DNA from: a virus
Lineage: Duplodnaviria; Caudoviricetes
IMG/VR virus record: IMGVR_UViG_3300032116_000256
Location: 1 to 55,148 of that record
DNA length: 55,148 nucleotides
Strand: one strand, 5' to 3'
Shown here: positions 5,447 to 47,000 of the stretch, in pieces
Layout of the letters: every line of letters begins with the position of its first letter
Numbering within the stretch: position 1 is the stretch's first letter
Position numbers and translations under genes: made by a program
Notes under the pieces: generated by a model
What the model was told of the DNA's origin: nothing
The model's database searches: none
Seen by the model: the letters and a program-made list of their open reading frames with translations, nothing else

Positions 5447-5841
5447 GAATTTATAATGTTAAAAAATGATTCTGGCAGGATAACGTTTTCTGGAATGAAT
5501 TTACCTTTGAATAAATTTGCGATCTCCTCTTCTGAGTAACCAGCAAGACCGCAACCAATTTTCGTGACCAAGAACTCTGTGTCTGGGTATTCCATAACTT
5601 CACTGAGGAAAGAATAGATGTAGAATTCTATCTTGTCAAGAGAAAGTGTGCGAATAAACGTGTCTTTTGTAGGAATCGCAAAAGATTGGCCTTGTAAGCC
5701 ATAACCCATGCCCATTTTCGCTCCAAATTTTTCTACAGCTAATTTCGCTGCACCAGCACCGTGAATGCCAGCTTCATTGGAGCCAAACACAAATACTTGG
5801 TTTTTCTTGAGTTTTGTGATTTTATCTGGGGTGAATTTCAT
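5443..5841 (-). CDS. A1S_2505-like macrodomain-fold phage protein
   Basis: VFVFGSNEAGIHGAGAA, SFAIPT and VTKIGCGLAG motifs. Start reset to MKFTPD because the longer ORF runs into tRNA-Leu. Confidence 0.8.
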   Translation of the reverse strand: MKFTPDKITKLKKNQVFVFGSNEAGIHGAGAAKLAVEKFGAKMGMGYGLQGQSFAIPTKDTFIRTLSLDKIEFYIYSFLSEVMEYPDTEFLVTKIGCGLAGYSEEEIANLFKGKFIPENVILPESFFNIINS

Positions 5842-5848
5842 TGTAAAT

Positions 5849-5936
5849 TGGTAGCCGCAGTGGGATTCGAACCCACACGCTCTTACGAGCATTCGATTTT
5901 AAGTCGAATAGTGTCTGCCAGTTCCATCATGCGGCC
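5849..5936 (-). tRNA. tRNA-Leu(TAA)
   Basis: GGCCGCA/TGCGGCT acceptor, TTCGA-CTTAAAA-TCGAA anticodon arm, long variable arm, GGTTCGAATCC, ACCA end. Confidence 0.93.
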
Positions 5937-5941
5937 AAAAG

Positions 5942-6286
5942 TTATTCCAGAACTATAGTCTTACGGTTCAAATAGTCAATGGCTTTTTTCAAAATTCGCT
6001 CATCGTCATTGAATCTGCCAAGAGCAAGATTGCAGTTATTACATATATAACCGCGAAACTCATGAGAGAAATGGCAATGATCCAATATCCAATCATGCGT
6101 ATAATTTGAGCAAATTGGGCATTCGCCAGCTTGAGGCGGGGGATTTTCATCTTTTAATTTTTTTCTGAGAACTGATAGTTCTTTGCAGCAAACTGTGCAA
6201 GTGTTTTTTCTGCCGCCAGTTGACGAGGCGAAGAATGGGAATTGTTCAATTTCTTTTTTCTCTCCGCACTTGCGGCAGCACTTCAT
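5942..6286 (-). CDS. Endonuclease VII-like (HNH) nuclease, probable homing endonuclease
   Basis: CRKC..CTVC zinc finger, CPIC, LDHCH...FRGYICNNCNLALG. Confidence 0.85.
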   Translation of the reverse strand: MKCCRKCGEKKEIEQFPFFASSTGGRKNTCTVCCKELSVLRKKLKDENPPPQAGECPICSNYTHDWILDHCHFSHEFRGYICNNCNLALGRFNDDERILKKAIDYLNRKTIVLE

Positions 6287-6321
6287 TGAATCATGATAAT
6301 CTTTAGTTTGTAAATTTCAAT

Positions 6322-6432
6322 CGGTGGCGCGCAAGGAATTGAACCTTGATGGCAGTTGCCCTGCCTTGTCCATGTCGGCTGCTAAACATCGGCCAAGATG
6401 ACGACGGAATCGAACCGTCTTAGCCCTACGCC
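6322..6432 (-). ncRNA. tRNA-like structured RNA with two T-loops
   Basis: GGCGT...GCGCC-A-CCG ends; GACGG-TTCGATT-CCGTC and CAAGG-TTCAATT-CCTTG arms; lies in the tRNA array with the same short T-rich spacer. Confidence 0.65.
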
Positions 6433-6437
6433 AAAAT

Positions 6438-6512
6438 TGGTGGTTCCACTGGGATTCGAACCCAGAACCAACGACTTAAAAGGACGCTGCTCTACCATTG
6501 AGCTATAGAACC
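6438..6512 (-). tRNA. tRNA-Lys(TTT)
   Basis: GGTTCTA/TGGAACC acceptor, loop CTTTTAA, CCA end. Confidence 0.92.
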
Positions 6513-6520
6513 GAAAATTG

Positions 6521-6644
6521 ACCCTCTCTCAATAGCGTCGTTGTGTAGTCAGATTACAAGTGTCTATTCCACCATGAATCTGATTCCATTGCTACCAAAC
6601 GCCCAGCATTCAATAGATTCGTGAATGCAGCTAAGGGAGAGGGT
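6521..6644 (-). ncRNA. Unassigned structured RNA of about 125 nt
   Basis: ACCCTCTC/GAGAGGGT closing stem plus GCATTCA/TGAATGC, TCAGATT/AATCTGA and GTAG/CTAC helices; located between tRNAs. Confidence 0.55.
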
Positions 6645-6667
6645 TTCTGGGTAATTACTCCCAAAAG

Positions 6668-6678
6668 TGTAAAGAACA
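6668..6678 (-). promoter_or_regulatory. boxA-like antitermination element
   Basis: TGTTCTTTACA on the transcribed strand within the tRNA array; resembles rrn boxA TGCTCTTTAACA. Confidence 0.45.
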
Positions 6679-6683
6679 AAAAT

Positions 6684-6760
6684 TGGTCGTCCCGCTGGGA
6701 TTCGAACCCAGAACCTAGCCCTTATAAAGAGCTTGCTCTAACCAGTTAAGCTACGGGACA
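6684..6760 (-). tRNA. tRNA-Ile(TAT)
   Basis: AGCTC-TTTATAA-GGGCT anticodon arm, CTGGG-TTCGAAT-CCCAG T arm, ACCA end. Confidence 0.88.
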
Positions 6761-6764
6761 AAAT

Positions 6765-6841
6765 TGGTGGGCGATGAGGGATTCGAACCCCCGATCAAAG
6801 AATTATGAGTTCTCTGCTTTGAACCACTAAGCTAACCGCCC
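6765..6841 (-). tRNA. tRNA with CAT anticodon (Ile2 or elongator Met)
   Basis: GAGAA-CTCATAA-TTCTT; G1-C72 pair and no three G-C pairs in the anticodon stem, so not an initiator. Confidence 0.9.
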
Positions 6842-6843
6842 AT

Positions 6844-6920
6844 TGGCGCGAGGACCGAGAATCGAACTCGGAACCAACAGTTTAGAAAACTGTTGCTCTA
6901 TCCAGTTGAGCTATCCCCGC
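6844..6920 (-). tRNA. tRNA-Arg(TCT)
   Basis: ACAGT-TTTCTAA-ACTGT, D loop CTGGATA, GCCA end. Confidence 0.92.
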
Positions 6921-6925
6921 GAAAT

Positions 6926-7000
6926 TGGAGCAGCAGATGGGACTCGAACCCACAACATCCAGCTTGGAAGGATGGCGCTCTACCGTTGAGCTACTGCTGC
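6926..7000 (-). tRNA. tRNA-Gly(TCC)
   Basis: GCAGCAG/CTGCTGC acceptor, loop CTTCCAA, TCCA end (U73). Confidence 0.92.
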
Positions 7001-7009
7001 TAGTTTTAA

Positions 7010-7261
7010 TTAATTTAAAACCTGCTCTTGGGGTTGATTCTTTAGACGTTCACGCTCCCGATTAAGACGGCGCATTTGATTCTGATACTTGCGATCCTTC
7101 TTCTCGTCGTAATTAAGAGCAGCTTGAAACTCATCACGATACTTGGCAAGGATGAAGTTGTACGTCTTCATCGTGGAGGCGGCAACTGCCGCATCCGAAT
7201 ATCCGTTGAATGAATCAGCGGAACTACTAGGCAAGGGAGCGTTTTCGTCCATGTTAATCAA
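7010..7261 (-). CDS. Hypothetical protein
   Basis: ATGA-coupled to the upstream gene; basic C-terminal helix. Confidence 0.65.
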   Translation of the reverse strand: MINMDENAPLPSSSADSFNGYSDAAVAASTMKTYNFILAKYRDEFQAALNYDEKKDRKYQNQMRRLNRERERLKNQPQEQVLN

Positions 7262-7548
7262 ACAAAGGCTTGCTTGTCCTTGAAATACTTTTGGCAGCGG
7301 AATTTAAAAGCCTCGTAGCGTTCAAGCAACGACATTGGAATAGGAGCGGCACTGCACTTGCGAGACCGTTCATAAGCAATCTCGACTCCCCGCTTTGGAT
7401 CAAAACGATCTCCAAGTGAAAAATTGCAAAGCGACCAGCCTATGAAAACGGTCTCAGGCTGATGTTCATTAGCGACGGCGGCGAGAACGCCAATTCGCTG
7501 ATCCTTGTTGTCAAGGATGTAAACGTGGATTCCTTTTGGATTATTCAT
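7258..7548 (-). CDS. Conserved hypothetical phage protein
   Basis: IGWSLCN...DRFD..RGVEIAYER pattern; start reset to MNNPKG downstream of a TTGACG-17-TACCTT promoter. Confidence 0.7.
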   Translation of the reverse strand: MNNPKGIHVYILDNKDQRIGVLAAVANEHQPETVFIGWSLCNFSLGDRFDPKRGVEIAYERSRKCSAAPIPMSLLERYEAFKFRCQKYFKDKQAFV

Positions 7549-7600
7549 GATTGTGGTTGATGACTTGATGGCGGTAAGGTACTCGATGGTCAACGTTTCG

Positions 7601-8272
7601 TCAAGGGTTTTCTGTGAGAATTTTGTAGTCGAATTCAGTCAAATGATCATAATTACCAATTTTGTGACGAATCATGGAATTGAAAGCAAGACTAATTCTC
7701 TTTGTTGAGGCTTGATTTGATGGAACCGAATGAGGCAAGTAAGATGCAAACAACAACAAATCACCGTTTTTCAAAGAAACAGGATGAGAATTATCAGCGT
7801 ATTTTCTTTCAACTTTTGGATTAGGCTTAATGAACAATGGTGGCTGAATAATATTTTTTCCTGAACCAATATCTTGGTTCAGGCGATGAAAAAAAATAAT
7901 ATTATTTTTAAACTCTTCTACCTGTAAGTACAAAATTCCAGAAACAATTGAATTAGGATGCGTATGCAAGTGGGTGTGTTCTTTTGGGTGATTCCAATTT
8001 ACCCAGCTTTGAGTAATTCCGCATTCTCCATCAATAGCCATTTTACTTTCCATGAAATTCTGAGTCCGTTCACGAATGAAATCTTTTAAGTTTCTATAAC
8101 GCTCATCATTCAAGATGTACCTATTTGCACTAAAATGATGGGAGGCGCGATTATTTTTTTCGGATGGATTCAAGTCATCATTTTTTAATGAATTAAATTC
8201 ATCCATAAACGTTTCCCCAAGATTTATTTTAGATACGGGAACTGGGAAAAGATCAATAGTTTCAGCGGTCAT
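7601..8272 (-). CDS. 2OG-Fe(II) oxygenase (TIGR02466-like)
   Basis: SWVN, HTHPNSIVSGILYL, GDLLLFASYLPHSV and RISLAFN motifs. Confidence 0.85.
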   Translation of the reverse strand: MTAETIDLFPVPVSKINLGETFMDEFNSLKNDDLNPSEKNNRASHHFSANRYILNDERYRNLKDFIRERTQNFMESKMAIDGECGITQSWVNWNHPKEHTHLHTHPNSIVSGILYLQVEEFKNNIIFFHRLNQDIGSGKNIIQPPLFIKPNPKVERKYADNSHPVSLKNGDLLLFASYLPHSVPSNQASTKRISLAFNSMIRHKIGNYDHLTEFDYKILTENP

Positions 8273-8274
8273 AA

Positions 8275-8544
8275 TTAATTGTTTGTAAGTTTATTATACT
8301 TGTCTTCTGCATCTTGTCTAGCATTTGGCCCGCCATAATACCAGCCTTTTGTGCCGAAATCTTCATCCTTGGGCAAATATTCTGCGGGGTCAATTTTAAT
8401 TCCTTTAATTTCGTAACCGTTGTGTTTTTGAACCAACACAACTTCAAAGCCACCGCACTTGGAATACATTGCAACTTTGTCGGTGCGCTTGATCTGTTTC
8501 ATGGAATAACCATGATTTTTCATTTCAATTGGGAGCAGTTTCAT
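8275..8544 (-). CDS. Hypothetical phage protein
   Basis: Start reset to MKLLP (ATGA overlap); EYLP..EDFG..GW motif. Confidence 0.65.
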   Translation of the reverse strand: MKLLPIEMKNHGYSMKQIKRTDKVAMYSKCGGFEVVLVQKHNGYEIKGIKIDPAEYLPKDEDFGTKGWYYGGPNARQDAEDKYNKLTNN

Positions 8545-8741
8545 TTCAGTCGATTGTTGAATACTTTTGAACACTGTTTCAAGCCATTTACTTTGAGATG
8601 AGCGTAAGCCCACTTTAATTGAAAGTTACAATCTTTGCAAACGTAACCAACGTCAATGTCTTGGTAACATTCTTCTACGTTAGGATCAAACTGGTGCTCG
8701 CAGCACTGGCAAATAACGATTGCTGGCGCGCTCATTGCCAA
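8541..8741 (-). CDS. Small zinc-finger protein
   Basis: CQCC...VCKDC. Confidence 0.6.
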   Translation of the reverse strand: MAMSAPAIVICQCCEHQFDPNVEECYQDIDVGYVCKDCNFQLKWAYAHLKVNGLKQCSKVFNNRLK

Positions 8742-9085
8742 ATGCGATGCTTTTCAGCGATCCATTCATTGCCATCATATTCACACAAAATCCATTCTAC
8801 TTCAAATGGAATCTCAACCACTTTAACTGTGCAAAAGGTGCTGCTAAATCTTTCTGATCCAAGTTGCTCAAAAATTTCAATCATTATAGGATCGTCTCGC
8901 TTGAGATCGTGTTCGCTGAAGTATTCTCCATCAATATAAAAATAATACTTTTCATCGAAAAGGAATGAACGCCTTTCCTCTTTAGTGAAAGAGATCCCCT
9001 TTTTGGTAAGATAAAGCTCTTTAGCTTCATCACTAAGTCCAAAGCCACCGTAATCAGCGTTGATTAATATTTTGCGAGTTTTCAT
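8732..9085 (-). CDS. Conserved hypothetical phage protein
   Basis: YGGFGLS...RDDP...VVEIP...EYDGNEW pattern. Confidence 0.75.
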   Translation of the reverse strand: MKTRKILINADYGGFGLSDEAKELYLTKKGISFTKEERRSFLFDEKYYFYIDGEYFSEHDLKRDDPIMIEIFEQLGSERFSSTFCTVKVVEIPFEVEWILCEYDGNEWIAEKHRIWQ

Positions 9086-9089
9086 AATA

Positions 9090-9164
9090 TGGAGCCTCCA
9101 GTCGGATTCGAACCAACGACCTACAGTTTACAAAACTGTTGCACTACCACTGTGCTATAGAGGC
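9090..9164 (-). tRNA. tRNA-Thr(TGT)
   Basis: GCCTCTA/TGGAGGC acceptor, ACAGT-TTTGTAA-ACTGT, TCCA end. Confidence 0.92.
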
Positions 9165-11560: not shown

Positions 11561-13672
11561 TTAGGACTTACGATTATCAACTAAATTAATGTAGTCAAGG
11601 AGAAGTTTAGCGGCACTTTTGACACCGTAGAAGGAACCGTAACGCCCCTCAAACAGTGCGAACATCATCGGATAAGACTGGTTGATTGTCAAGACTTCTT
11701 GCTTGATTTTTTCAGAAATTTTCGAGTCGAGAGTACAAATGTTACCATCGACGCAGTGGCGAGGAAAATCTCCCAAAACGTGAAACTCTTTGATTTGCTC
11801 TGGAGTGAAGCCATAGTCACCCATGTCGTCGCTTTTATTCCAAGCGTCGAAATAAACTGAAATCGGGTGATTGTCAGGCAAAGCTTTCCTCAGATCACTG
11901 AGGTGAGAAATCATAGGGAAAGAGCTTGTGCGAAATGACTTCTCCTCTTTGGCATTAAAAATTGATTTAAATTGAGCAATTGCCGCATTGAATTTGGGCA
12001 TGAGGGCATCATGCAAATTAATAGCGTGAGCGGGGAGATCAGTCCTATCCAAGACGCCATAAACATTGTCATAATTGATGCCAAAATGCTTTGCAATCTT
12101 CCAGATAGTTCTGAAGTCGTGCATCTGAAAGTTTTTGTGATCACCGAAAACAATATCGTAATTGTTGCCGCCGTTATGCTTGATGTCAACATAATAGAAA
12201 GGATCGCTAGGCATTGGAACCTTTTCCTTGAAACTGTAGCTGTAATGGCTGTTGGAAAAGATTTTGCGTACATTGTTGAACTCTTTACTCTTGGATGAAA
12301 CAGGAGTGAGTTTAGAAGCGAGGTGAATATGATCGCAAGAGTTATGCTTGTAAAGCAGTTTGCTTTCGGCGTCAGCAAGGGAAACTACATAGATTATCCC
12401 ATCGATTCCCTTGGAACTCATTAATCCATTAACGCGATCATGAATGTTTTTAACGTTATCATTGATAACGATACGCCAATTGTTTCCACCAGCATAAAAC
12501 ATCTTGGCACTGATAGTCTTTTGGACGTTCTGGGCCTTCTTTGACAACCGCACAAGATTGCGAGTGCTGCGAGACTTTTTGTAAATAGCCAACGGGACAA
12601 TCGGATCACCGTTGATTTTAATTACATTTTTATTGGCATCAGTGAAGTTATAATTAGCGTCGCAGCAAAGCGACTCAAGGTTATTGGAGCCGCTCAAAAG
12701 ATACAGCTTTTTGAAAAACTCTGCTGAGTCAGAAATCGCATCGATTTCTTTTTGAACTTGCGCTTTGATTTCCGTCTCCAACTTAGAGATGGCGCGAGCA
12801 ATGAAGTTCTTGGTCTGCGCGTTGTATTCTAGATTCTCGCGAGAGTGGTGCAGCGCAACCGAGCCAACTGGAAAGAAAAAGACGAAGAAATTAGAAAGGT
12901 AAGAGTTGGAGAATGCCTTGTAAATATTTGACGAGGCAATTGGATGATTCGCAAGATTGTCAAGATTCAGTGGGTAAGAAATGCCACCCATCACAATGAT
13001 AGGATCGGAGCGTCTGTTCCTCTCCATTCCCCAATCAGCGTTCTTAATCACCCACTCTGGGACCAAACGCGAAAAACCTTTGCAGACAAACCTCTCGTCA
13101 GAGAAGCGAATGACATTGTTGATTTCGCATTCGAAGTTGGAAATGTCCTCGCTTTTGATTGCAACAGAAATCTCAACGCCACTCGGCTCAGAAGTGGAAG
13201 TGTCAGAGAGCTTGGTGAAACGAGTGTCGCCATGCTCGTCAACATAAACAGAGATGACGATCTCAGTTCCATTGTGACGAGAACTAACCGTAAATGAATC
13301 AGTATACGACAGCGGAGCGAAACGACCAATGCCGAAACCGCCGATTGAATCGTTGTCGCTGCGCTTGGTTGAGCGACCATACTTGGTGTAGAGACCAAAG
13401 AGGTCAGACTCGGAAAGACCCGCGCCAAAGTCACGCACAACGAAAGTGGGACTCAGGCGAGTGGGAGCAGTGATCTCAACGTGACGGGACGAACCCTTGT
13501 TCGCGTCAACCGCATTGGCGATAGTTTCGCGTGCAGTTGCCAAGATGACATTGGAATAATTATTCCGCAAAAGCGACGAGATGTAGCGCATCTCATTCGC
13601 ATCAATGGTCGCGATTTCAGATTTGAAATCGTGAGATTCAACAACGTTTCGCTGGATGGATTTGACAATCAT
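11561..13672 (-). CDS. rIIA: rIIA-like protein (GHKL ATPase N-terminus)
   Basis: RETIANAVDA, VRDFGAGL, YGRSTK, IGGFGIG and SRENLEY motifs; start reset to MIVKS. Confidence 0.9.
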   Translation of the reverse strand: MIVKSIQRNVVESHDFKSEIATIDANEMRYISSLLRNNYSNVILATARETIANAVDANKGSSRHVEITAPTRLSPTFVVRDFGAGLSESDLFGLYTKYGRSTKRSDNDSIGGFGIGRFAPLSYTDSFTVSSRHNGTEIVISVYVDEHGDTRFTKLSDTSTSEPSGVEISVAIKSEDISNFECEINNVIRFSDERFVCKGFSRLVPEWVIKNADWGMERNRRSDPIIVMGGISYPLNLDNLANHPIASSNIYKAFSNSYLSNFFVFFFPVGSVALHHSRENLEYNAQTKNFIARAISKLETEIKAQVQKEIDAISDSAEFFKKLYLLSGSNNLESLCCDANYNFTDANKNVIKINGDPIVPLAIYKKSRSTRNLVRLSKKAQNVQKTISAKMFYAGGNNWRIVINDNVKNIHDRVNGLMSSKGIDGIIYVVSLADAESKLLYKHNSCDHIHLASKLTPVSSKSKEFNNVRKIFSNSHYSYSFKEKVPMPSDPFYYVDIKHNGGNNYDIVFGDHKNFQMHDFRTIWKIAKHFGINYDNVYGVLDRTDLPAHAINLHDALMPKFNAAIAQFKSIFNAKEEKSFRTSSFPMISHLSDLRKALPDNHPISVYFDAWNKSDDMGDYGFTPEQIKEFHVLGDFPRHCVDGNICTLDSKISEKIKQEVLTINQSYPMMFALFEGRYGSFYGVKSAAKLLLDYINLVDNRKS

Positions 13673-13696
13673 GGGAGCAATTTGATTTACAGGCAA

Positions 13697-16029: not shown

Positions 16030-18087
16030 CTACTTTGAAGTAGCAACATATACCCCATCCCAATTTTTTGTCAAGCCTTTTTCGCGCAATTCGCCGATTC
16101 TTTCTATCATCATGTCGTAATATTTTTTCAGTTCTGGGTTATTCTTCTTGAGGCTTTCGGCTAAGGTAATCGCATTGTCCCAGTTTTGGGCGCGGTAATC
16201 ACAAATGAATCCATCGTGCATTCTGTAAATATGTTTTATTTTATCTTCATCGTGCTTGTTTTCAAGCACTGTGAATATTTTAACGCCTTCTTTCTTGCCC
16301 TTAACCGCAATCAAATCTAATTCAAGTGTCTGGTAATCATTTTTGATATGCTCTGCGGTTCTGGGGCCAACTATGATTCTAACACCGTAAGGCTTAGATT
16401 GCCCTTCTAATCTAGAGGCGAGATTAACATGATCACCCAAGCAAGTGTAATCGAAACGCTGAGTGCTACCCATATTGCCAACGACAACGCTCCCAGTATT
16501 GATTCCGAGTCCCATGCCGAATGGCGGGACACCTTCTTTTGAGATTTCTTCATTGAAAGAGTCGAGACGTTTAAGCATCTCTAATGCTGTCTTTACAGCA
16601 TTTTTCGCGTGATTAGCGTCATCAAGCGGCGCATTCCAGAACGCCATTTGAGCATCGCCAATGTACTTATCCAAAGTGCCATCGTTTTTCAATATCGATT
16701 CGGTCATTGCTGTCATGTAGCGATTCATAATCATTGTTAAGCCTTGTACATTTTTACCATAGTGTTCTGAGATTGTAGTAAAGCCACGAACATCTGTGAA
16801 CATGATAGAAAGCTCGCGTTCATCTCCACCTAAACGAAGCAAACCTGGGTTTTTTTGCAACTTCTCTACGAGTGCTGGCGCAAGATAAGTGCCGAATTGT
16901 TTTTTAATTAATTGTTTTTGTTTGAATTCGCTAATGAATCTCAAGAACGCGGATAACATGAACATCACTGATATTGCAATAATTATCCAACTGTAATCGA
17001 ATAATTGCCCCTTGGAAAACGATACGAATCCGAATTTAATTGGCGCAGCCACCAAAGCAATATAAAAAAGCCCAGTCAACCAATAAGGGCCACTAATGAG
17101 TATTAATATTACGGCTAATCCTGCTAATGATCCATAAAGCAATTCATATAAATTAAATTGGCTAGGTCTTTCTAACCTAGCCTCATCTGCCAACATCTGA
17201 GCGGCGAACAATGGAATTTCATATCCATATCTTATATTTACGGAGGTCGCAACAGTGTTTGATAACCCTTCAGCAGTCGGCGCAATCATAACAACTTTAT
17301 CTTTAACTTTGCTCCAGTTGTGGTCGGCAAAAGATAATGAACTGAATTCATATTTAAAATTAATCCAGACGCGCCCATGCTCATCTGTTTTTATTGTTTT
17401 AAATTGCGGAATTCTAACCGCATCTATTCCAGCTTGATTTATTCTTGCTTGATAGCTTGGGTCGCCAGCTAAAACACGAAGCATTTCAAGCGGTATAGTT
17501 GGATATATTTCTTTGTTTATTTGTACGATTAGCGGTAGCCTTCTAACTACACCGTCAACTTCTGGCGCAGTCAAAAGCATTCCAACGCCAGCCGCAGCTT
17601 CACCGAGTTGTTTCGTCGGACCAATCGCCGCATTATATTCAAATAACCATTCATTTATGCCCTCTCCAATTGTTGCGACGCCTCTTGGAACTGGTTGGCC
17701 TTTTCCTTTATTTGCCGCAGACTGACTCAAGATTACAGGGTAAGTTTTTAACACTTCTGTTAGTTCATCATCTCCATTGAATCGATCTTTCTCCGCAAAG
17801 ATCACTGGCAGCACAACTAACTGAGCTTGGTTATCGAATGCTTTTTTGATTGCTTTTGCAATAACTTGTCTTGGAAAGGGCCATTGACCTTCTTTCTCCA
17901 AAGTTTTTTCGTCTATTTCCACTACAATAATATTTTCACTTATTTGCTTTGGTTGAGTTCGTTGATAATAATCAATAGTCTTGAGTCTGGCGGTCTCAAT
18001 AAAAAATGGATCGTTTATGCGCAGCACAACAAGTCCAATCAGCACAGCGAATGAAAATAAAAAAGAATATAATTTATATTTGCTCAT
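16030..18087 (-). CDS. CHASE2-domain class III adenylate cyclase
   Basis: CHASE2 motifs (VEIDEKTL..GQWPFPR, DGVVRRLPL), about 3 TM helices, cyclase core MFTDVRGFT / DKYIGDA / YTCLGDHVNLASRLE with Lys and Thr ATP-specifying residues. Confidence 0.93.
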   Translation of the reverse strand: MSKYKLYSFLFSFAVLIGLVVLRINDPFFIETARLKTIDYYQRTQPKQISENIIVVEIDEKTLEKEGQWPFPRQVIAKAIKKAFDNQAQLVVLPVIFAEKDRFNGDDELTEVLKTYPVILSQSAANKGKGQPVPRGVATIGEGINEWLFEYNAAIGPTKQLGEAAAGVGMLLTAPEVDGVVRRLPLIVQINKEIYPTIPLEMLRVLAGDPSYQARINQAGIDAVRIPQFKTIKTDEHGRVWINFKYEFSSLSFADHNWSKVKDKVVMIAPTAEGLSNTVATSVNIRYGYEIPLFAAQMLADEARLERPSQFNLYELLYGSLAGLAVILILISGPYWLTGLFYIALVAAPIKFGFVSFSKGQLFDYSWIIIAISVMFMLSAFLRFISEFKQKQLIKKQFGTYLAPALVEKLQKNPGLLRLGGDERELSIMFTDVRGFTTISEHYGKNVQGLTMIMNRYMTAMTESILKNDGTLDKYIGDAQMAFWNAPLDDANHAKNAVKTALEMLKRLDSFNEEISKEGVPPFGMGLGINTGSVVVGNMGSTQRFDYTCLGDHVNLASRLEGQSKPYGVRIIVGPRTAEHIKNDYQTLELDLIAVKGKKEGVKIFTVLENKHDEDKIKHIYRMHDGFICDYRAQNWDNAITLAESLKKNNPELKKYYDMMIERIGELREKGLTKNWDGVYVATSK

Positions 18088-19226
18088 TTTTGAATAATGT
18101 TTACTTTTGATTTCTCTCCAAAATTTAATACATAAGGTTCGCCGTTTACATTGACGCTCACGTTGTCGCCAAGTCTAGCGGTATAAACTATTACGCTTTT
18201 TTCTGTTCGTAATTCAAGTGTGGCAGTTTTGCCATCATTTGACTTAAATCCTTTGCTAACTGCTACATTAGGAGTTAATGTTGCTGTGGGCTGAACAATA
18301 GCTGGGGCAGTTTGATTTGATTTAGCTATTGCTTCCTCTGCCGCAGCTTGAACAACTTGGGGCTGGATTGCATTGATATCCAGTTTAGTTTCTGGAACTT
18401 GCACTGGCGTTTCAGTTGTTGCGGTTTGTGCAACTACTGCTTCTGCTGGAGCTTCACTAGGCTTATCTACTTGAGCAACTTCAGTTTTGCCCTCTTTCTT
18501 TTTATTTGGCTCGTCATCTTTCTTTCCGTCATCAGTTTTTTCTTTGCCTTCTTTCTTTGTAGTTTTGCTGCCTTGAGTAACTGATTTTGGGGACTCAAGC
18601 AAAATCATATTATTGATTTTTGATTCATCTTGGAAATTTAAAATAACAGGTTGAGTGGGGGCATTGAATCCAGAGCTAACAAATGTTGCTTGGTAAGGTT
18701 GGTTCATGACAACTTTGCCCCCAGCATTCTCCACTTCAATAGATCCTACAACTGGCTTTATGCCAGATGCTAGTGGGATGGACGGCAAAAGAACAATTAA
18801 ACTCTTGCCGTCCTCCGATACTGTCATTGAAAAGTCCGTGCCTCTTACAGAAACAACTGCTGTAGGAGTTTGAACTTTTATGTTTTCTCTGCTATTCTTT
18901 GCTATTAATCCTGACGCATATCTAACTGTGCCAGATGTTGCTTTCATGTTCAGTTTGCCTTTACCACTGGCAGGGTCATAGACAAACTCGTCTATCCTCA
19001 ACTTGGAAAACTCTGTAATTTGAACTTTGGTATTGTCTTCAAAGGTAATGCCAGCGCGACCTCGCAATGTTTCTATAACGTCATTCATTTCGACGCCAAC
19101 GCTGACTTTACCTTCAATCTTTTCGGTCTTTCTGGTTATTTGTGTCGGCCCAGTTATTTCAGTAAGTTGACCAGAAGAGGCGAAGCAAGATAAAGCCGCT
19201 AATAAAAATATAGCGGCTATTCTCAT
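18084..19226 (-). CDS. Secreted FecR-domain protein
   Basis: Signal peptide; NDVIET..GRAGITFED.T.V.I.E.SKL.IDEFVYD and TPTAVVSVRGTDF; low-complexity linker; small C-terminal beta domain. Confidence 0.85.
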   Translation of the reverse strand: MRIAAIFLLAALSCFASSGQLTEITGPTQITRKTEKIEGKVSVGVEMNDVIETLRGRAGITFEDNTKVQITEFSKLRIDEFVYDPASGKGKLNMKATSGTVRYASGLIAKNSRENIKVQTPTAVVSVRGTDFSMTVSEDGKSLIVLLPSIPLASGIKPVVGSIEVENAGGKVVMNQPYQATFVSSGFNAPTQPVILNFQDESKINNMILLESPKSVTQGSKTTKKEGKEKTDDGKKDDEPNKKKEGKTEVAQVDKPSEAPAEAVVAQTATTETPVQVPETKLDINAIQPQVVQAAAEEAIAKSNQTAPAIVQPTATLTPNVAVSKGFKSNDGKTATLELRTEKSVIVYTARLGDNVSVNVNGEPYVLNFGEKSKVNIIQK

Positions 19227-20032
19227 TAATTAGTCGGTGGGGCAATTGTTGCTGTTGTTTGAGCCGCTCCAGCGACACCGTTTTGGTTATTGCTATTCAA
19301 TGTCATCAATGGTGAAAAAGCTGTAGTGGTCTGAACAATGCGAACAGTATTGTTGCTACCAGTTAAATTATAATTAAAAAGCTGTTTCTCTAAGCCAGCT
19401 TGGTAAATAGTCAAATCATTAGATCCACCTGTGATTGTAACAGTTTGTTCATGACCATCTTTAGTCGCTGTACCACCAGCCACTAAACCAATTTGGGTAG
19501 ACTTAATTGTATTTGAACTGCCAGTTACTTCGTAATCAATATAATTATATTTACCATTCTCGATGCCGAATTTAAATACGTTTGAGTTGCCAGTTACATT
19601 GAACTTAAAGTCGCTGTAACTAACGGTGGCTTTTGACGTATCTGTATCAGATGTATGGTCAACGGTAACATCTTTATTGAGCAGGAATGAATTATTGTTT
19701 CCGTTAAAAAGCAAGTTCATATTGTTGTTTGATCCGCTCATAAAAATCTTTTGAGTATTCGCGTTGCCATTAAATACCGAAACTAATTTTAGATTGTTTG
19801 CATCGATAATTGAGAAATCCGTATTGTTGTTATTTCCCATTTGTCTCATTTCAAAAAGGATGTTATCTCCAGTGATATTACTGGGTGTTTGAGACGAACC
19901 TACTTTATTGAGAGATCCAACCTGTACAAAGGTTGTATTTCCCGAGGTTGTAATCTGATTAACGTAAAGCTGGTTCTGCCCGAAGGCGAGGGAAACCAAC
20001 GTTACGAATAACGCGATCAGTTTAATCTTCAT
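19226..20032 (-). CDS. Secreted curlin-like beta-solenoid protein
   Basis: Signal peptide; repeated (Q/x)xGxxN turns about 11 aa apart (QVGSLN, QMGNNN, FNGNAN, MSGSNN, VTGNSN, VTGSSN, ITGGSN, LTGSNN); directly after csgG. Confidence 0.7.
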   Translation of the reverse strand: MKIKLIALFVTLVSLAFGQNQLYVNQITTSGNTTFVQVGSLNKVGSSQTPSNITGDNILFEMRQMGNNNNTDFSIIDANNLKLVSVFNGNANTQKIFMSGSNNNMNLLFNGNNNSFLLNKDVTVDHTSDTDTSKATVSYSDFKFNVTGNSNVFKFGIENGKYNYIDYEVTGSSNTIKSTQIGLVAGGTATKDGHEQTVTITGGSNDLTIYQAGLEKQLFNYNLTGSNNTVRIVQTTTAFSPLMTLNSNNQNGVAGAAQTTATIAPPTN

Positions 20033-20825
20033 TGTTTTGGGGTTGAGGTTTTAGTTTCCAAAGTTTACACTCTTGGCCTTGTTTAATGATTTCTATTACT
20101 GCTTGTTCTATCGCACTTCTAACCGCAATAGTATTAGGTTCGTTTGCAGTGAAACCAAGCTCTGATTCTGCTGGTGTTACTCCGTGTTCGTAAAATTTAA
20201 ACAAGTTGCCCGAAGCTGCCACACTGGAAATTGTTTTTGTAACTGCAACACTCAGAATGATTTCGCCAGTTTGTACACTGACAAATCGTAATGAAACAGT
20301 TACAACATCTTTGCGATATTGGGTGCTGCCAGATATACCAAGAAGGCTGGCACCGGCACCACCAGTTAAGATATTAGTATCGTAGCCAATAATTCCTCCT
20401 TCTGCAATTATGCCCGCAAATAACATTGGCATCAGTTTTTCTGCGTCTTTGCCTTGAAATGACTCTCTGGTTTGATTTATAAGTTGACGCTCTCTTATAA
20501 CATTATCTAAATTAGAGCGTTCCAAAACTTGGAACCATTTGCCATCTCCTGCAATTCGCAAAGCATCTATGAGCCAACTTTCTGCGCCTTGAGTTACTGC
20601 TGACGAAAAGGAGGCGTAGGCGTCAACTGTTTTACGTTGTCCAGTTTTATCGGCAAACGCATAAACTGCGATTGTCATTCTGGGGTTGTCTGGCTCAGGT
20701 AAATTTTTAAGCTGCTCTTCAAGCGGAGAAGTCTGCAACTTGGGCAAAGTTATGATAGCTGGCTTCTCTGGCAGAGAGGCGCATCCAACTAGACTAAGCA
20801 ATAAAAGGCTTGCCAGCCATTTCAT
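20022..20825 (-). CDS. csgG: CsgG curli secretion channel lipoprotein
   Basis: LVGC lipobox; AVYAFADKTGQ, SSAVTQGA, WFQVLER..LDNVIRERQLI, EGGIIGYD and NEP...AVRSAIE motifs. Confidence 0.92.
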   Translation of the reverse strand: MKWLASLLLLSLVGCASLPEKPAIITLPKLQTSPLEEQLKNLPEPDNPRMTIAVYAFADKTGQRKTVDAYASFSSAVTQGAESWLIDALRIAGDGKWFQVLERSNLDNVIRERQLINQTRESFQGKDAEKLMPMLFAGIIAEGGIIGYDTNILTGGAGASLLGISGSTQYRKDVVTVSLRFVSVQTGEIILSVAVTKTISSVAASGNLFKFYEHGVTPAESELGFTANEPNTIAVRSAIEQAVIEIIKQGQECKLWKLKPQPQNNED

Positions 20826-21277
20826 TAAGGAGTTGGAGCTAAGACGCCAACAGGAACTTGTATTTGAGTTGTGTTTCCTGTGGCGGGGTCAACAATAAAA
20901 AGAGTAACCATATCTCCGTTTTTCTGCCATGTAACAGTCGCTCCTCCTTGTAAATTAATTATCCCAAAATTTGCGCCTCCTGCGTTAAAAATTTGATCGG
21001 TAACTTGAGAAGCAAGCTGAGAGTAAATTCTTGCCTGTAAGTTGTTTATAAAATTATTTAATGGAGTGTTTTGAGATTGTATTTTTTCTTGTTCAAGCTC
21101 TGCTTTGGCAATATCTTTTATCGATTGTTTTCTGGTTCTAGCTAAATTTTCAATCGTAATAATGTGACCAGAAAAATTTACTCCATTAAACGCTGGAGAT
21201 TTAAAAGAATAAACCATGTCACTGCCAAATGCGTTGGTAGCGCAAACTAAAAAGAGTAATATTTTAGCGAGATTCAC
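20825..21277 (-). CDS. csgF: CsgF-like curli assembly protein
   Basis: Signal peptide then MVYSFKSPAFNG (CsgF N-terminal CsgG-binding motif), FINNLQARIYSQL, C-terminal TTQIQVP; GTG start. Confidence 0.85.
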   Translation of the reverse strand: MNLAKILLFLVCATNAFGSDMVYSFKSPAFNGVNFSGHIITIENLARTRKQSIKDIAKAELEQEKIQSQNTPLNNFINNLQARIYSQLASQVTDQIFNAGGANFGIINLQGGATVTWQKNGDMVTLFIVDPATGNTTQIQVPVGVLAPTP

Positions 21278-21286
21278 TAAAAGATA

Positions 21287-21292
21287 TTACAC
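21287..21292 (-). promoter_or_regulatory. GTGTAA putative late-promoter motif
   Basis: 9 nt upstream of the csgF start; recurs before 9267, 26203 and 47256. Confidence 0.4.
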
Positions 21293-21293
21293 T

Positions 21294-21944
21294 TTATTCT
21301 TTTTTAAATTGATAAAAGTAATCCCAATTGTCACCGGCAATCCATTTGCCTTCTCCTTCGCAGGTAAACTCTTGAGTAAAGACTTGCCAATCAGGTTTCT
21401 CTAACTTTTTAGAGATAAAAGCCCCACCATCTTTCCATACAACTCTGTTATTTGGTTGCAAAAACAATTGGTTTACAGGCTTGCCATCTTTATCTTTCAG
21501 CCCCCAAATAACATGACCACACTTATGACCGCCAGCCATTTCAGAGTATCCGTAAGAAGCGTCTGGATTGTCGCGCCAGTCAATAGTAAAAAGATATTTA
21601 CCCTCGACCCACTCATGGTTCTTTAGCTGAATATTAACTCTCGCATTTTTATGATACTCCCATCGGGTAACTGAAATGTCATAAGAGAAACAGTCCCACA
21701 ACTGCAACCAATCTAAGGGTAAATTAGAATGTTGTGGCTCGTTTACCAAAAAATGAATTGGAACACGATCATGACGCGAGCCATATTCCGTCATGACTTG
21801 AAACGTTAAACATCTTCTGGTTAAGCTGGTAACCCCAAAAACTTCACAAAGAACGTATTCTGTTTTTTTGTTCTCGTTGTTATAGAGGAAGTCGCTTTTT
21901 AAATAAGCTGGAAATACAGGGATGTTTGCATTAAGGTGAGGCAT
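21294..21944 (-). CDS. Conserved hypothetical phage protein
   Basis: LNANIP...LQLWDCFSY...GKYLFTIDW...HKCGH...QPNNRV.W pattern. Confidence 0.75.
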   Translation of the reverse strand: MPHLNANIPVFPAYLKSDFLYNNENKKTEYVLCEVFGVTSLTRRCLTFQVMTEYGSRHDRVPIHFLVNEPQHSNLPLDWLQLWDCFSYDISVTRWEYHKNARVNIQLKNHEWVEGKYLFTIDWRDNPDASYGYSEMAGGHKCGHVIWGLKDKDGKPVNQLFLQPNNRVVWKDGGAFISKKLEKPDWQVFTQEFTCEGEGKWIAGDNWDYFYQFKKE

Positions 21945-26202: not shown

Positions 26203-27735
26203 ATGTCAAGGGAATCTAATCATAAAGTAAATGCGGAGCTTTTTTCGCTTGAGCCTACGGCCTTGCTTGAATTCTTCGTGATTTATTATGATTATGTTAA
26301 TAGACCAGACGAAAAACTCTACATTCATGGTGGCACAAACGGCATAAATGGCTCAGTTTGGTGGCAAGGTCAGGAATATTCTCCATTTCCCATACAGAGT
26401 TCTGGTTTCGAATCAAAGGGGGATGGTTCTTTACCTAGACCAAAGTTAATGGTATCAAACCAAGACTTTTTCATGTCGAACTTGATTCGTCGATATGATA
26501 ACCTTATTGGTGCCAAGATAGTTAGAAAAAGAACTTTCGTCAAATTTTTAGATAACAAAAACTTTTCTGGGTCAGTTCATCCTTATGGATCTGCTGATCC
26601 AAGTGCAGGTTTGGAAGATCAGGTATTTTATATCTTAAGAAAATCTTCTGAGAACAGATCAATTGTGGAGTTTGAGTTAGCTTCGCCGTTAGAGCTTGAT
26701 AATGTCACTTTCCCTAAAAGAATTGTAATGGCGAGATATTGTTCATTTCATTACAGAGGTATAGGTTGCAGGTACTCTGGCCCACCAATAGCAGATGAAA
26801 ATGACGTTAAAATATCTTCTCCTACCGATGTTAGAAACGGCTTAATTAAACGTAGATATGATAAAGCTGGCCTTGTACTGCCAACAAATACAGCGACCTT
26901 TATATCTGGCATTAGTTCAGTAACAACAGCAACAGAATCTGTTGTGTCAAATATATCTGTAGATAACGAAGATAATTTCTATCTTGAGTTTCTTGGGTTT
27001 TTCAAAGTTGGTAAAGGACAAGCAGGAGAATACATATTTGGAGTTAATAATGACGAATCTGTAGAGTTCATTTTAAATAATAATATCATTGTAAAAGATT
27101 ATGGACCCGGCCCGCAAGACCCTGCGTCAAAGCCAAAATGGTCTGGCAGAGTAGAATATTTAAGCGAAGGGTATCATAGATTATTAATTAGATATGCGGA
27201 ATCAACTGGTGCTCAAGGACTTGCATTATATTACAAAACTCCAAATTCAGCTAATATGTCTCTCGCTGTTGATTCAGCTTCTTGGGTAGCATTGCCAGCG
27301 TCGAGACTTTATTACGACATAGATGAAGTTGGCAAGTTGGCAGCAAATCAAAACTTCAGTTCTAATATCTCTTTGAGCAGAACAGTGTCATTAAATCAAA
27401 GCTCTCTTGGAGATGGAGTAACAATTGATCGTGGAAGATGGGTAACTAAAAGTAATTATAAGGTAGGCGACTTTGTTTATGTCGAAAACCATAACGTAAA
27501 AATTCCTAAAGACAATATAAATGCAATTCCAAATTGGGAGCCGTTACAAAAGATTTATATATGCCTTAAAGATCATACCAGTTCGCCAACCAATGCGCCT
27601 TATTTAAATAAAACATTATGGGTGGCAGATCAATGCTCTAAAACTTTAAGTGGATGTAAATTAAGATTTGGGCGCGAAGCATCTTTACCTTTTGGTGGAT
27701 TCCCAGGAACAGAAGAATACTCAATAAACGGATAA
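26203..27735 (+). CDS. Minor tail protein L-like (Fe-S) with PA14-like insertion
   Basis: YSPFPIQSSGFE..GDGSLPRP, KRTFVKFLD, EFELAS, CSFHYRGIGC...CSKTLSGC..RF..LPFGGFPG. Confidence 0.9.
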   Translation: MSRESNHKVNAELFSLEPTALLEFFVIYYDYVNRPDEKLYIHGGTNGINGSVWWQGQEYSPFPIQSSGFESKGDGSLPRPKLMVSNQDFFMSNLIRRYDNLIGAKIVRKRTFVKFLDNKNFSGSVHPYGSADPSAGLEDQVFYILRKSSENRSIVEFELASPLELDNVTFPKRIVMARYCSFHYRGIGCRYSGPPIADENDVKISSPTDVRNGLIKRRYDKAGLVLPTNTATFISGISSVTTATESVVSNISVDNEDNFYLEFLGFFKVGKGQAGEYIFGVNNDESVEFILNNNIIVKDYGPGPQDPASKPKWSGRVEYLSEGYHRLLIRYAESTGAQGLALYYKTPNSANMSLAVDSASWVALPASRLYYDIDEVGKLAANQNFSSNISLSRTVSLNQSSLGDGVTIDRGRWVTKSNYKVGDFVYVENHNVKIPKDNINAIPNWEPLQKIYICLKDHTSSPTNAPYLNKTLWVADQCSKTLSGCKLRFGREASLPFGGFPGTEEYSING

Positions 27736-46225: not shown

Positions 46226-46606
46226 TTAAACAGGGAATGAACCAGAAACACCAATTTGTTTACGGACAATTGGAGGATTCTTTTGACGCTCAATCTCTGC
46301 GACAAGGCCAGACTGAAGGCCAAATTCGCCAGTTACATTAATCTTTGAAGAGACCCATTCTGCGGCCATTCCAGTAGTAACTGCATCAAATGCAACGAAG
46401 GCTCCAGAGTCGGTTACGGGATCAAGAGATACAGTGCCAATGCTGGAAGCGAAATAATATTCGGGAGATTCGCCACTAGCGAGTTCTCCGGTATTCTTTG
46501 GCTCAATGGCAGTGATTCTCCAGTGAATTGTTTTAATTACATCAGCTAATCCACTCTCAAGTGGAGCGCAGTCTAAAGCGGGGAATTCCCATCTATAAGT
46601 AATCAT
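46226..46606 (-). CDS. Small putative tail-fibre-associated protein (paralog 2)
   Basis: VIKTIHWR...IERQKNP pattern; paralog of 46629-47000. Confidence 0.7.
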   Translation of the reverse strand: MITYRWEFPALDCAPLESGLADVIKTIHWRITAIEPKNTGELASGESPEYYFASSIGTVSLDPVTDSGAFVAFDAVTTGMAAEWVSSKINVTGEFGLQSGLVAEIERQKNPPIVRKQIGVSGSFPV

Positions 46607-46628
46607 GGTAGTTTAAATTTTTTATATA

Positions 46629-47000
46629 TTAACTAATTGCTTCGTATCCAGTAACGCCAATTTGTTTACGAATAATTGAAGGATTTTTTTGTTTTTCTAT
46701 TCGATCCGAAAGGCCAGAATAAATGCCACCAACTCCAGAAATATTTAATTTTGCTTCTAGCCAATTAAAAACTATTCCAGTATTGAGTAAATCAAATGGG
46801 ATAAATGTTCCAGAAGGAGATATAGGATCAATTTGAGTTGCTCCTGCCTCTATGGCGGTGTAATAGCCAAGATCAGGATCTTCGAAGTTTTTAAGTTCAG
46901 ACGCTTTAATTTGCCAATGAATCGTTTGCACAACATTAGAAAATTCATTTTGCAATGGAATACAATCTAAACTGGAAATTTTTATTTTAAAATCAATCAT
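46629..47000 (-). CDS. Small putative tail-fibre-associated protein (paralog 1)
   Basis: VVQTIHWQ...IEKQKNP. Confidence 0.7.
   Translation of the reverse strand: MIDFKIKISSLDCIPLQNEFSNVVQTIHWQIKASELKNFEDPDLGYYTAIEAGATQIDPISPSGTFIPFDLLNTGIVFNWLEAKLNISGVGGIYSGLSDRIEKQKNPSIIRKQIGVTGYEAIS

Follow-up and report, generated by a model that had tools for sequence, protein, structure and literature searches.

The closest described relatives of the locus analysed here are viral. Wittmers et al. (2022, mSystems; PMC9599517) treat CsgF, CsgG, CsgA/B, FecR and an adenylate cyclase as one conserved region of pelagiphages, a viral type VIII secretion system (T8SS, curli) in which FecR and the cyclase are taken as putative regulators. 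A second CsgA/B is frequent in this region, histidine kinases are present in podoviruses, and transcripts, a global distribution and alphaproteobacterial affinities are reported. Zaragoza-Solas et al. (2020; PMC7029224) describe a 'curli operon' of pelagimyophages (its main text contains neither the word 'cyclase' nor the word 'FecR'), and Buchholz et al. (2022; PMC9004378) propose a lysis-timing pore for phage Melnitz. The subject of this report is a five-gene cassette of the same type in the IMG/VR virus record IMGVR_UViG_3300032116_000256 (Duplodnaviria; Caudoviricetes). The sequence analysed, called the window below, is the whole of this record (55,148 nucleotides, with a completeness of about 38%).

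The cassette is the one already published for pelagiphages, a viral T8SS (curli) with FecR and an adenylate cyclase, here in its five-gene form. An initial annotation, made by a model from the sequence alone, had taken only csgF and csgG of marine T4-like phages to be known. This overstated the novelty of the locus, as a paper of 2022 already describes the full cassette, FecR and cyclase included. New here are the carrier, which is a further phage backbone with a lambda-type tail and DnaE and is not T4-like, a probable two-module bacterial ancestry in which the FecR/CHASE2 pair is itself linked to secretion, and the fold resemblances of the FecR N-domain described below.

Compared with known members of the pelagiphage-type cassette, the window shows identities of 41-44% for the cyclase (44% with Methylophilales phage Melnitz and 41% with Pelagibacter phage HTVC008M), 46-50% for CsgG and 43-47% for FecR. 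A megablast search with the cassette against GenBank phages gave no match. The annotations of HTVC008M (KC465899) and Melnitz (MZ577097) run csgF, csgG, curlin, then a product labelled FecR-domain or hypothetical, another labelled curlin-like (the second of its kind) or hypothetical, and last the cyclase. This second curlin-like gene, in the fecR-cyclase interval, is missing from the window, as is the histidine kinase that stands ahead of the cassette in the podovirus version. CsgC, CsgD and CsgE occur neither in the window nor in the pelagiphage-type cassette. The second curlin-like protein of HTVC008M (positions 5658-6983 of locus L002) carries a PA14 domain (2.7e-06).

With the bacterial curli systems (E. 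coli csgBAC-csgDEFG and the alphaproteobacterial csgG-csgF-curlin arrangement) the phage cassette has CsgG, CsgF and a curlin-repeat subunit in common, to which it adds FecR and a CHASE2 cyclase. CsgE, CsgC and CsgD are absent from the alphaproteobacterial systems as well, according to PMC9599517. The CHASE2 class III cyclase is shared with the NsrA-CyaK/CyaD1/CyaD2-Clr pathway of Sinorhizobium meliloti. There, the response of the CHASE2 cyclases CyaK and CyaD1/D2 to an extracellular protein requires NsrA, an outer-membrane barrel, and the cyclic AMP (cAMP) then acts via Clr (PMC7529298, PMC13001267). The same regulon includes SMc02177, a protein with a FecR domain (PMC5498481). The dependence on an outer-membrane protein is a property of the S. 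meliloti pathway. Its outer-membrane partner is NsrA, whereas that of the phage would be CsgG, and its Clr-type receptor has no counterpart found in the window. Among experimentally supported systems, this pathway is the nearest model of how the cassette could work.

Two further groups of systems bear on FecR. The FecR/PupR anti-sigma regulators have the fold of the periplasmic FecR-type domain in common with the phage protein. They also possess a cytoplasmic anti-sigma domain and a transmembrane (TM) helix, whereas the phage FecR has a signal peptide of the cleavable type instead. For the Lap-type adhesins (LapA/LapG/LapEBC; RIN plug of MpIBP, 5IX9), the likeness lies in the loci of bacterial cyclase relatives and in a partial match between FecR and the RIN fold. 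These systems comprise ABC and membrane fusion proteins of a type I secretion system, a BTLCP protease and a giant RTX-type adhesin, none of which is found by Pfam in the phage window, and they use cyclic di-GMP (c-di-GMP) and LapD where the phage cassette has a CHASE2 cyclase.

The five genes and their products

All five minus-strand open reading frames (ORFs) that the initial annotation had placed here were recovered by ORF listing (16030-21277). In the order of transcription these are csgF, csgG, the curlin-like gene, fecR and the CHASE2 cyclase gene, with the following features.

21287..21292, minus strand: GTGTAA motif, in the 16-nt gap between the upstream stop codon (21294-21296) and the csgF GTG (21277)
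20825..21277, minus strand: csgF, T8SS accessory/cap protein, 150 aa, GTG start, signal peptide
20022..20825, minus strand: csgG, outer-membrane lipoprotein secretion channel, 267 aa, lipobox LVGC (Cys15)
19226..20032, minus strand: curlin-type repeat protein (CsgA/B-like), 268 aa, signal peptide
18084..19226, minus strand: fecR, whole gene, 380 aa
18582..19172, minus strand: N-terminal FecR/PupR-fold domain of FecR, residues 19-215, predicted periplasmic (Pfam, AlphaFold2 (AF2))
18252..18581, minus strand: K/E/P/A-rich variable linker of FecR, about residues 216-325, with a low predicted local distance difference test score (pLDDT)
18087..18251, minus strand: small C-terminal beta module of FecR, about residues 326-380, invariant Gln379 (AF2, alignment)
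16030..18087, minus strand: CHASE2 cyclase gene, whole, 685 aa
17152..18039, minus strand: CHASE2 periplasmic sensor domain of the cyclase, residues 17-312 (Pfam)
16924..17157, minus strand: hydrophobic cluster of the cyclase, residues 311-388 (hydropathy)
16273..16815, minus strand: class III catalytic domain of the cyclase, residues 425-605, predicted cytoplasmic (Pfam, PDB matches)

The junctions also read in the sequence as they had been described: TAATG at 20825 and 19226, an 11-nt overlap at 20022-20032 and ATGA at 18084-18087. Stop and start thus overlap at 4/4 cassette junctions in the window. Translational coupling is likely, because no purine-rich ribosome-binding stretch is found ahead of csgG, the curlin-like gene or fecR. 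The initial annotation had further proposed one operon behind the GTGTAA motif. The motif is present, at the position given above, and is not enriched; its role as a signal and the existence of an operon of its own are not supported. An extended GTGTAA 10-mer, allowing one mismatch, occurs 9 times against 5.07 expected, and 8/100 shuffled sequences reach 9. Between 13500 and 26500, there are 36 sites resembling sigma-70 promoters (36.5 expected) and 10 terminator-like sites (9.3 expected), both numbers being at chance level. The cassette is embedded in a long co-directional array of minus-strand genes and is not demonstrably a separately promoted operon of its own. No RNA run is listed as covering 16030-21292, and four runs of one study share 0.07-0.08 of the words. 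The gene directly upstream of csgF (21294-21944) matches phrog_3704, 'ferredoxin' (3.1e-50), and has no Pfam match; a gene matching phrog_3704 stands next to the cassette only in the closest relatives.

Pfam confirmed CsgG, CsgF, FecR, CHASE2 and Guanylate_cyc, as had been anticipated, while the curlin-like protein taken alone was without a match. CsgF matches its Pfam profile at 9.7e-19 (residues 8-142 on positions 9-132 of 132) and phrog_35372 at 1.2e-30. It begins with the signal-peptide N-terminus MNLAKILLFLVCATNAFG and gave no match in a single-sequence phmmer search against the PDB. CsgG (Pfam CsgG, 1.9e-51) aligns over residues 9-264, its full length, with E. coli CsgG (3x2r/4q79/6l7a) at 5e-44, and in its LVGC lipobox G14 and C15 are invariant in 15 phage homologues. 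Neither CsgE, CsgC nor CsgD has a Pfam match among the ORFs of at least 50 aa in the 55-kb window (of a record about 38% complete), in agreement with the initial annotation.

The curlin-like protein is rich in N, T, S and G and contains no Cys or Trp. When 13 syntenic homologues are combined in a family profile (A2), this finds 8c50, a curli subunit of known structure, at 1.5e-12, and CsgA of E. coli (8enq) at 0.011; the proposal of a curlin-like protein is borne out at the profile level only. Homologues that exceed the Curlin_rpt cut-off (20.7 bits) include that of viral locus L136 (29.8 bits) and Melnitz gene 101 (26 bits). In the AF2 model (pLDDT 74.7) some 18 short strands are stacked on one another, and Foldseek found nothing like this model in the PDB at E <=0.001. 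VIA-align superimposed it on 8c50_A with a Z score of 17.2 (root-mean-square deviation (rmsd) 9.2, 195 residues aligned, 20% identity), a score tied with those of unrelated SufD-like solenoids, and on 8enq_A with a Z score of 11.3 (24% identity).

In FecR (Pfam FecR, 2.3e-10) the signal peptide MRIAAIFLLAALSCFASSG is followed directly by the FecR domain. The AF2 model is very confident for the beta domain of residues 19-200 (pLDDT about 95). The pLDDT falls below 50 over residues 218-287 and 304-322 of the linker, neither the sequence nor the length of which is conserved (alignment A3). The C-terminal module has five strands over residues 334-377 (pLDDT 62-77), and Q379 is invariant in 17 sequences. 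A sequence search with this module against the PDB gave nothing below E 0.26, and an atlas search gave nothing usable. The idea that the module is a curlin-like repeat was tried and rejected (hhalign of A4 against A2: probability 0.5%, E 0.11).

The N-terminal domain of FecR superimposes on 6ovk_R, the C-terminal cell-surface signalling domain (CCSSD) of PupR, with a Z score of 15.2 (rmsd 2.6, 134 residues aligned; Foldseek E 3.5e-4), and on 4m0n with a Z score of 14.2. According to the PDB title of 6ovk, the PupR domain was solved in complex with an outer-membrane transducer domain. Residues 15-109 also match the RIN plug 5ix9 (Z 6.8, rmsd 2.2, 73/76 aligned; Foldseek E 0.036, TMt 0.72), a middling score that concerns half of the FecR domain only. 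The RIN 'plug' of 5IX9 is a periplasmic part of MpIBP, an adhesin secreted by a type I system, and served as template for the LapA retention module (PMC5550230, bioRxiv 10.1101/198937). Of the two resemblances of the modelled N-domain, that to the signalling domain of PupR is the stronger and that to the adhesin plug the weaker. No extracytoplasmic function (ECF) sigma factor and no TonB-dependent transducer or receptor family was found in the window by Pfam. 'Iron regulator' is a label inherited from the FecR family; there is no pointer to iron in this analysis.

The cyclase matches Pfam CHASE2 at 2.3e-39 (residues 17-312) and Guanylate_cyc at 9.6e-22. A hydrophobic segment at residues 4-31 (TM1) is followed by the CHASE2 domain, the cluster of residues 311-388 and the catalytic domain. 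Kyte-Doolittle 19-mers scoring at least 1.6 cover 311-335, 319-358 and 362-388, and we read the cluster as three TM helices. The protein has the layout of CHASE2 proteins, with an extracytoplasmic domain between a TM helix and a TM cluster and then a cytoplasmic output domain. The catalytic domain aligns with 6fht (5.2e-33) and CyaB 3r5g (6.9e-30) through the motifs FTDVRGFT, DKYIGD, GINTG and NLASRLE. The catalytic set was rightly called intact: D432, K474, D478, T531 and R559 are invariant, and N555 nearly so, in 15 phage cyclases. From the class III cyclases, we take D432 and D478 to be metal ligands, K474 and T531 to specify adenine, and N555 and R559 to act in the transition state. The envelope topology first proposed for the products agrees with the CsgG lipobox, the signal peptides on CsgF, the curlin-like protein and FecR, and the TM segments and cytoplasmic domain of the cyclase.

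Conservation in viruses and relatives in bacteria

The cassette is abundant. Scans of IMG/VR gave at least 591 relatives when anchored on the cyclase and at least 301 when anchored on CsgG, and the best 80 of each, a sample biased towards close relatives, yielded 102 unique loci. Where the flanks are long enough, all five genes are present: in 49/49 loci anchored on CsgG (600 nt or more upstream, 6500 nt or more downstream) and in 49/49 anchored on the cyclase (5000 nt or more upstream). The initial annotation had named a lack of co-conservation as the result that would count against it, and the genes proved to be co-conserved in this sample. The five-gene order of the window is the commonest form (53/102 unique loci). 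A second curlin-like gene lies between fecR and the cyclase gene in 5 of the 102, and the cyclase gene is on the opposite strand in 5 of the 102. The curlin-fecR-cyclase order is fixed, with fecR always between the T8SS genes and the cyclase gene. The stop and start of fecR and the cyclase gene overlap in 52/68 unique loci, the most of any junction.

The opposite-strand cyclase genes (loci L137, L139, L142, L153 and L154) lie 1-2.3 kb downstream of fecR in very large T4-like records (up to 364 kb, one with terminal repeats), and their products are 38-49% identical to the window cyclase.

Distance matrices for 61 loci show that the divergence of CsgF, CsgG, curlin, FecR and the CHASE2 domain co-varies (r 0.85-0.97). 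When CsgG is controlled for, the divergence of the FecR N-domain follows that of the CHASE2 domain (0.39) and of the TM cluster (0.47) more closely than that of CsgF (0.26), a weak pointer to a FecR-CHASE2 pair; the comparison is exploratory, the locus pairs are not independent, and these figures therefore carry no probability.

To place the cyclase among bacterial proteins, its alignment was scanned over one genome per bacterial species and the 80 best loci were examined. These are mostly from Hyphomicrobiales (32-52% best-segment identity), and 34/80 contain a FecR-like match. Neighbourhoods were counted for the 54 bacterial CHASE2-cyclase loci that extend 8 kb or more to either side. The distance from the cyclase to an HlyD-type gene is no more than 700 nt in 23/54 and no more than 10 kb in 32/54, a FecR-like gene is present in 32/54, a BTLCP/LapG-like protease in 23/54 and a SlipAM/TPR barrel in 2/54. 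At least one of FecR-like, HlyD-type, BTLCP and SlipAM genes accompanies the cyclase in 47/54 loci, and none in 7/54. Pfam searches of four example loci show how this context recurs. The gene immediately upstream of the cyclase in locus L196 encodes 1692 aa that combine a FecR domain with cadherin-like repeats and end in a C-terminus of serralysin type, and a BTLCP gene is close by. In L179 an ABC/HlyD pair for type I secretion precedes the cyclase, and a FecR-FG-GAP protein faces it; in L235 the cyclase faces a FecR protein together with a TPR/SlipAM outer-membrane barrel. The FecR of this last trio is 33% identical to that of the window over 228 residues.

These bacterial loci are of interest in their own right. 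L196 (3458-12184) and 53 further loci (within L156-L235), from Hyphomicrobiales and other bacteria, place a CHASE2 cyclase inside a Lap-like type I secretion locus that also encodes an ABC/HlyD pair, a BTLCP protease and a giant repeat protein containing a FecR domain. By analogy they resemble a Lap adhesin system wired to cAMP, where the known one is controlled by c-di-GMP. The giant protein of Bradyrhizobium, the start codon of which is uncertain, has an AAAA stretch just upstream of the FecR domain that may be a LapG-type cleavage site. A literature search found no paper combining CHASE2 and LapG. Among the matches listed, those for CHASE2 with type I secretion, adenylate cyclase and adhesin were unrelated papers that do not mention CHASE2, and there was none for FecR with LapG, BTLCP or a retention module.

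The secretion half has separate relatives. Of 401 sampled Alphaproteobacteria, 19 have a CsgG match, of which 7 are close, and the phage curlin profile A2 matches genes adjoining csgG in 6/7 of these close loci. Because both halves occur separately in the bacteria sampled, the phage cassette looks, from these sequence comparisons, like a chimera of a bacterial T8SS/curlin module and a bacterial FecR/CHASE2 module.

A candidate sensing pair and its alternatives

In the reading that we favour, the state of the exporter or of its product is read by the FecR-CHASE2 pair and converted to cAMP in the infected cell; we hold this tentatively, at a little short of an even chance. In an infected Gram-negative cell, four envelope proteins would be exported via Sec. 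The lipoprotein CsgG would form the outer-membrane channel with CsgF sitting on it, and the curlin-type beta-solenoid subunit would be secreted through CsgG and polymerise on the cell surface. The periplasmic FecR-fold protein and the inner-membrane CHASE2 cyclase would constitute a sensing pair, which would read the state of the exporter or surface product and set cytoplasmic cAMP synthesis accordingly. The analysis establishes the identities of the genes, the topology signals, the intact catalytic residues, the conserved linkage and the separate bacterial origins of the two halves; fibre formation, the contact between FecR and CHASE2, the direction of signalling and any effect of cAMP are what we infer.

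Coupling of FecR to CHASE2 is suggested because fecR is fixed between the secretion genes and the cyclase gene, because its junction with the latter is tight, because the FecR N-domain has the fold of a PupR signalling domain, because the bacterial FecR/CHASE2 pair recurs beside secretion systems, and because the S. meliloti CHASE2 cyclases need NsrA. On this footing, the idea of sensing across the envelope, as put forward in the initial annotation, appears reasonable and plausible; the downstream roles suggested along with it (sensing of superinfection, timing of lysis, reprogramming of CRP) are speculative.

A number of observations weigh against it. CsgG, CsgF and curlin-like genes were found by tblastn within 10 kb of none of the 80 best bacterial cyclases (0/80), nor did profile hidden Markov models find FecR or a cyclase around the 7 close alphaproteobacterial csgG loci (0/7), and the phage linkage may simply join two independently useful modules. 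The FecR-domain protein of S. meliloti, SMc02177, is reported to be dispensable for signal perception (PMC5498481). In viral curli regions, according to PMC9599517, FecR and the cyclase are not always present, and the cyclase is less frequent in those of podoviruses. Searched alone against Pfam, the curlin-like protein of the window shows no Curlin_rpt match even at E up to 1, and no cyclic nucleotide-binding protein or cAMP receptor was found among the ORFs of at least 50 aa in the 55-kb window. Melnitz infections showed no clumping (PMC9004378). Finally, in the same exploratory distance comparison, the divergence of the catalytic domain (residues 420-610) follows that of the rest of the cassette at r 0.19-0.40 only, and that of the CHASE2 domain of the same protein at r 0.26 (61 loci). 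Strong constraint, saturation or domain exchange could account for this decoupling.

The published alternative is that the cassette makes fibres: CsgG, CsgF and curlin would produce adhesive, curli-like fibres, which would either draw cells together ('sibling capture') or cover the infected cell, and FecR and the cyclase would only regulate T8SS expression or activity via cAMP (and iron), with no sensing of the fibre. It has been proposed in PMC9599517 and PMC7029224, and it is in keeping with the homology of the curlin subunit to bacterial CsgA (the A2 matches at 6/7 alphaproteobacterial loci and to 8c50), with the adhesin-like PA14 domain (2.7e-06) on the second curlin-like gene of HTVC008M, and with the existence of T8SS regions without a cyclase (PMC9599517). 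The regulatory part is harder to reconcile with the window, where Pfam finds no CsgD, CRP or other cAMP-responsive regulator. In addition, the stop-start overlaps mean that the five genes are probably made together, which leaves little room for control of transcription by the cyclase. The phage FecR, having neither a cytoplasmic anti-sigma domain nor a TM anchor, cannot act like E. coli FecR, and nothing in this analysis points to iron. Aggregation also sits poorly with the absence of clumping in Melnitz infections. We consider this explanation rather unlikely.

It is unlikely, too, that the cassette merely houses two auxiliary modules working independently of each other, a T8SS/curlin surface module and a FecR/CHASE2 module that senses an unrelated periplasmic or external cue and reprogrammes host metabolism via cAMP. 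The halves are indeed unlinked in the bacteria sampled (at the 80 and 7 loci above), the gap between fecR and the cyclase gene exceeds 150 nt in 14/68 unique viral loci, the cyclase is on the opposite strand in five architectures, and the divergence of the catalytic domain is decoupled from the rest. Set against these points are the presence of all five genes in 49/49 and 49/49 viral loci, the fixed curlin-fecR-cyclase order, the overlap of fecR with both its neighbours in the window, and the position of the bacterial FecR/CHASE2 pair beside a secretion system, though a different one. A pore-only device, in which CsgG and CsgF form a gated, secretin- or pinholin-like pore for lysis timing or uptake and the other genes are accessory, seems very improbable. 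It was put forward from structural modelling and synteny (PMC9004378), and the failure to find the periplasmic gate CsgE by Pfam in the 55-kb window would suit it. That paper states that csgA/csgB are lacking, whereas a curlin-repeat gene is conserved directly after csgG. The lipobox makes CsgG an outer-membrane lipoprotein, and no lysis genes were recognised beside the cassette in the window by Pfam or PHROG. Opening an outer-membrane channel such as CsgG cannot depolarise the inner membrane.

Within the reading that FecR and CHASE2 sense the exporter, a more specific arrangement may be envisaged, which we regard as distinctly unlikely. The FecR N-domain would be a periplasmic stopper, the disordered linker of roughly 100 residues would thread through CsgG, the C-terminal module would take up its fold beyond the outer membrane, at CsgF or the curlin fibre, and CHASE2 would read pull on this tether, its occupancy or its loss and turn the reading into cAMP. 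Three layouts have features in common. In the type I loci, a FecR domain lies near the N-terminus of a giant protein that is secreted C-terminus first; in the Slam-type locus (L235) a FecR domain is followed by a linker and a C-terminal domain; and in the phage it is followed by a disordered linker and a small C-terminal module. Together with the middling likeness to the RIN plug, these layouts suggest that the FecR domain may be a periplasmic stopper, read by CHASE2, on a protein with its tail running through the outer-membrane pore. One prediction of this arrangement, that the C-terminal module is curlin-like, failed (hhalign probability 0.5%). If true, the arrangement would explain why bacterial FecR and CHASE2 pairs accompany secretion systems of type I, Slam type and other kinds, and why the FecR domain always occupies the N-terminus of the cargo, which is exported last. 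CHASE2 would then be a monitor of pore-tethered surface proteins, and the phage cassette the smallest self-contained example.

The carrier phage and its other genes

Published carriers of the cassette are SAR11/OM43 myoviruses or HTVC023P-type podoviruses. The carrier in the window is not one of these, as shown by its lambda-type tail-tip genes and DnaE. Its phage genes include Phage_tail_L, a JAB/K-like protein, a 1952-aa J-like tail protein, ribonucleotide reductase and DnaE; the best matches in cultured phages share no more than 31% identity with DnaE and no more than 43% with tail L. Among five large cassette-bearing contigs, a T4-type Gp23 capsid protein occurs in 4/5 and tail L in 0/5; four fragments from among the closest mid-sized contigs (17-33% complete) carry neither tail L nor DnaE.

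Several other genes of the window deserve mention. Tail L (26203-27735; Phage_tail_L 3.1e-56) is fused to PA14 (6.4e-05), a domain of glycan-binding type. The replicative polymerase is split into overlapping or adjacent genes for PHP (54086-54823), an RNase_T/epsilon-like exonuclease (53463-54134) and the DnaE core (50902-53466). A ClpB/Hsp104-like double AAA+ ATPase with a Clp_N domain is encoded at 48479-50893, and tandem DUF7936 paralogues of 126 and 123 aa at 46226-47000. A 711-aa protein with an N-terminal HATPase_c_3 domain (GHKL ATPase) is encoded at 11561-13696, 2.3 kb downstream of the cassette. Seven minus-strand tRNA genes (Leu-taa, Lys-ttt, Ile-tat, Met-cat, Arg-tct, Gly-tcc and Thr-tgt) lie at 5849-9164, and all seven read A/T-ending codons.

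Since several unrelated phage backbones carry the cassette, a strong selective benefit can be argued. The input signal of CHASE2 is still described as unknown in PMC5192318; the bacterial neighbourhoods in which a FecR cargo, a secretion system and a CHASE2 cyclase occur together suggest a concrete and testable one. The five-gene cassette is compact enough for reconstitution in E. coli. As a probable chimera, it would be an example of phages assembling new envelope devices from bacterial parts.

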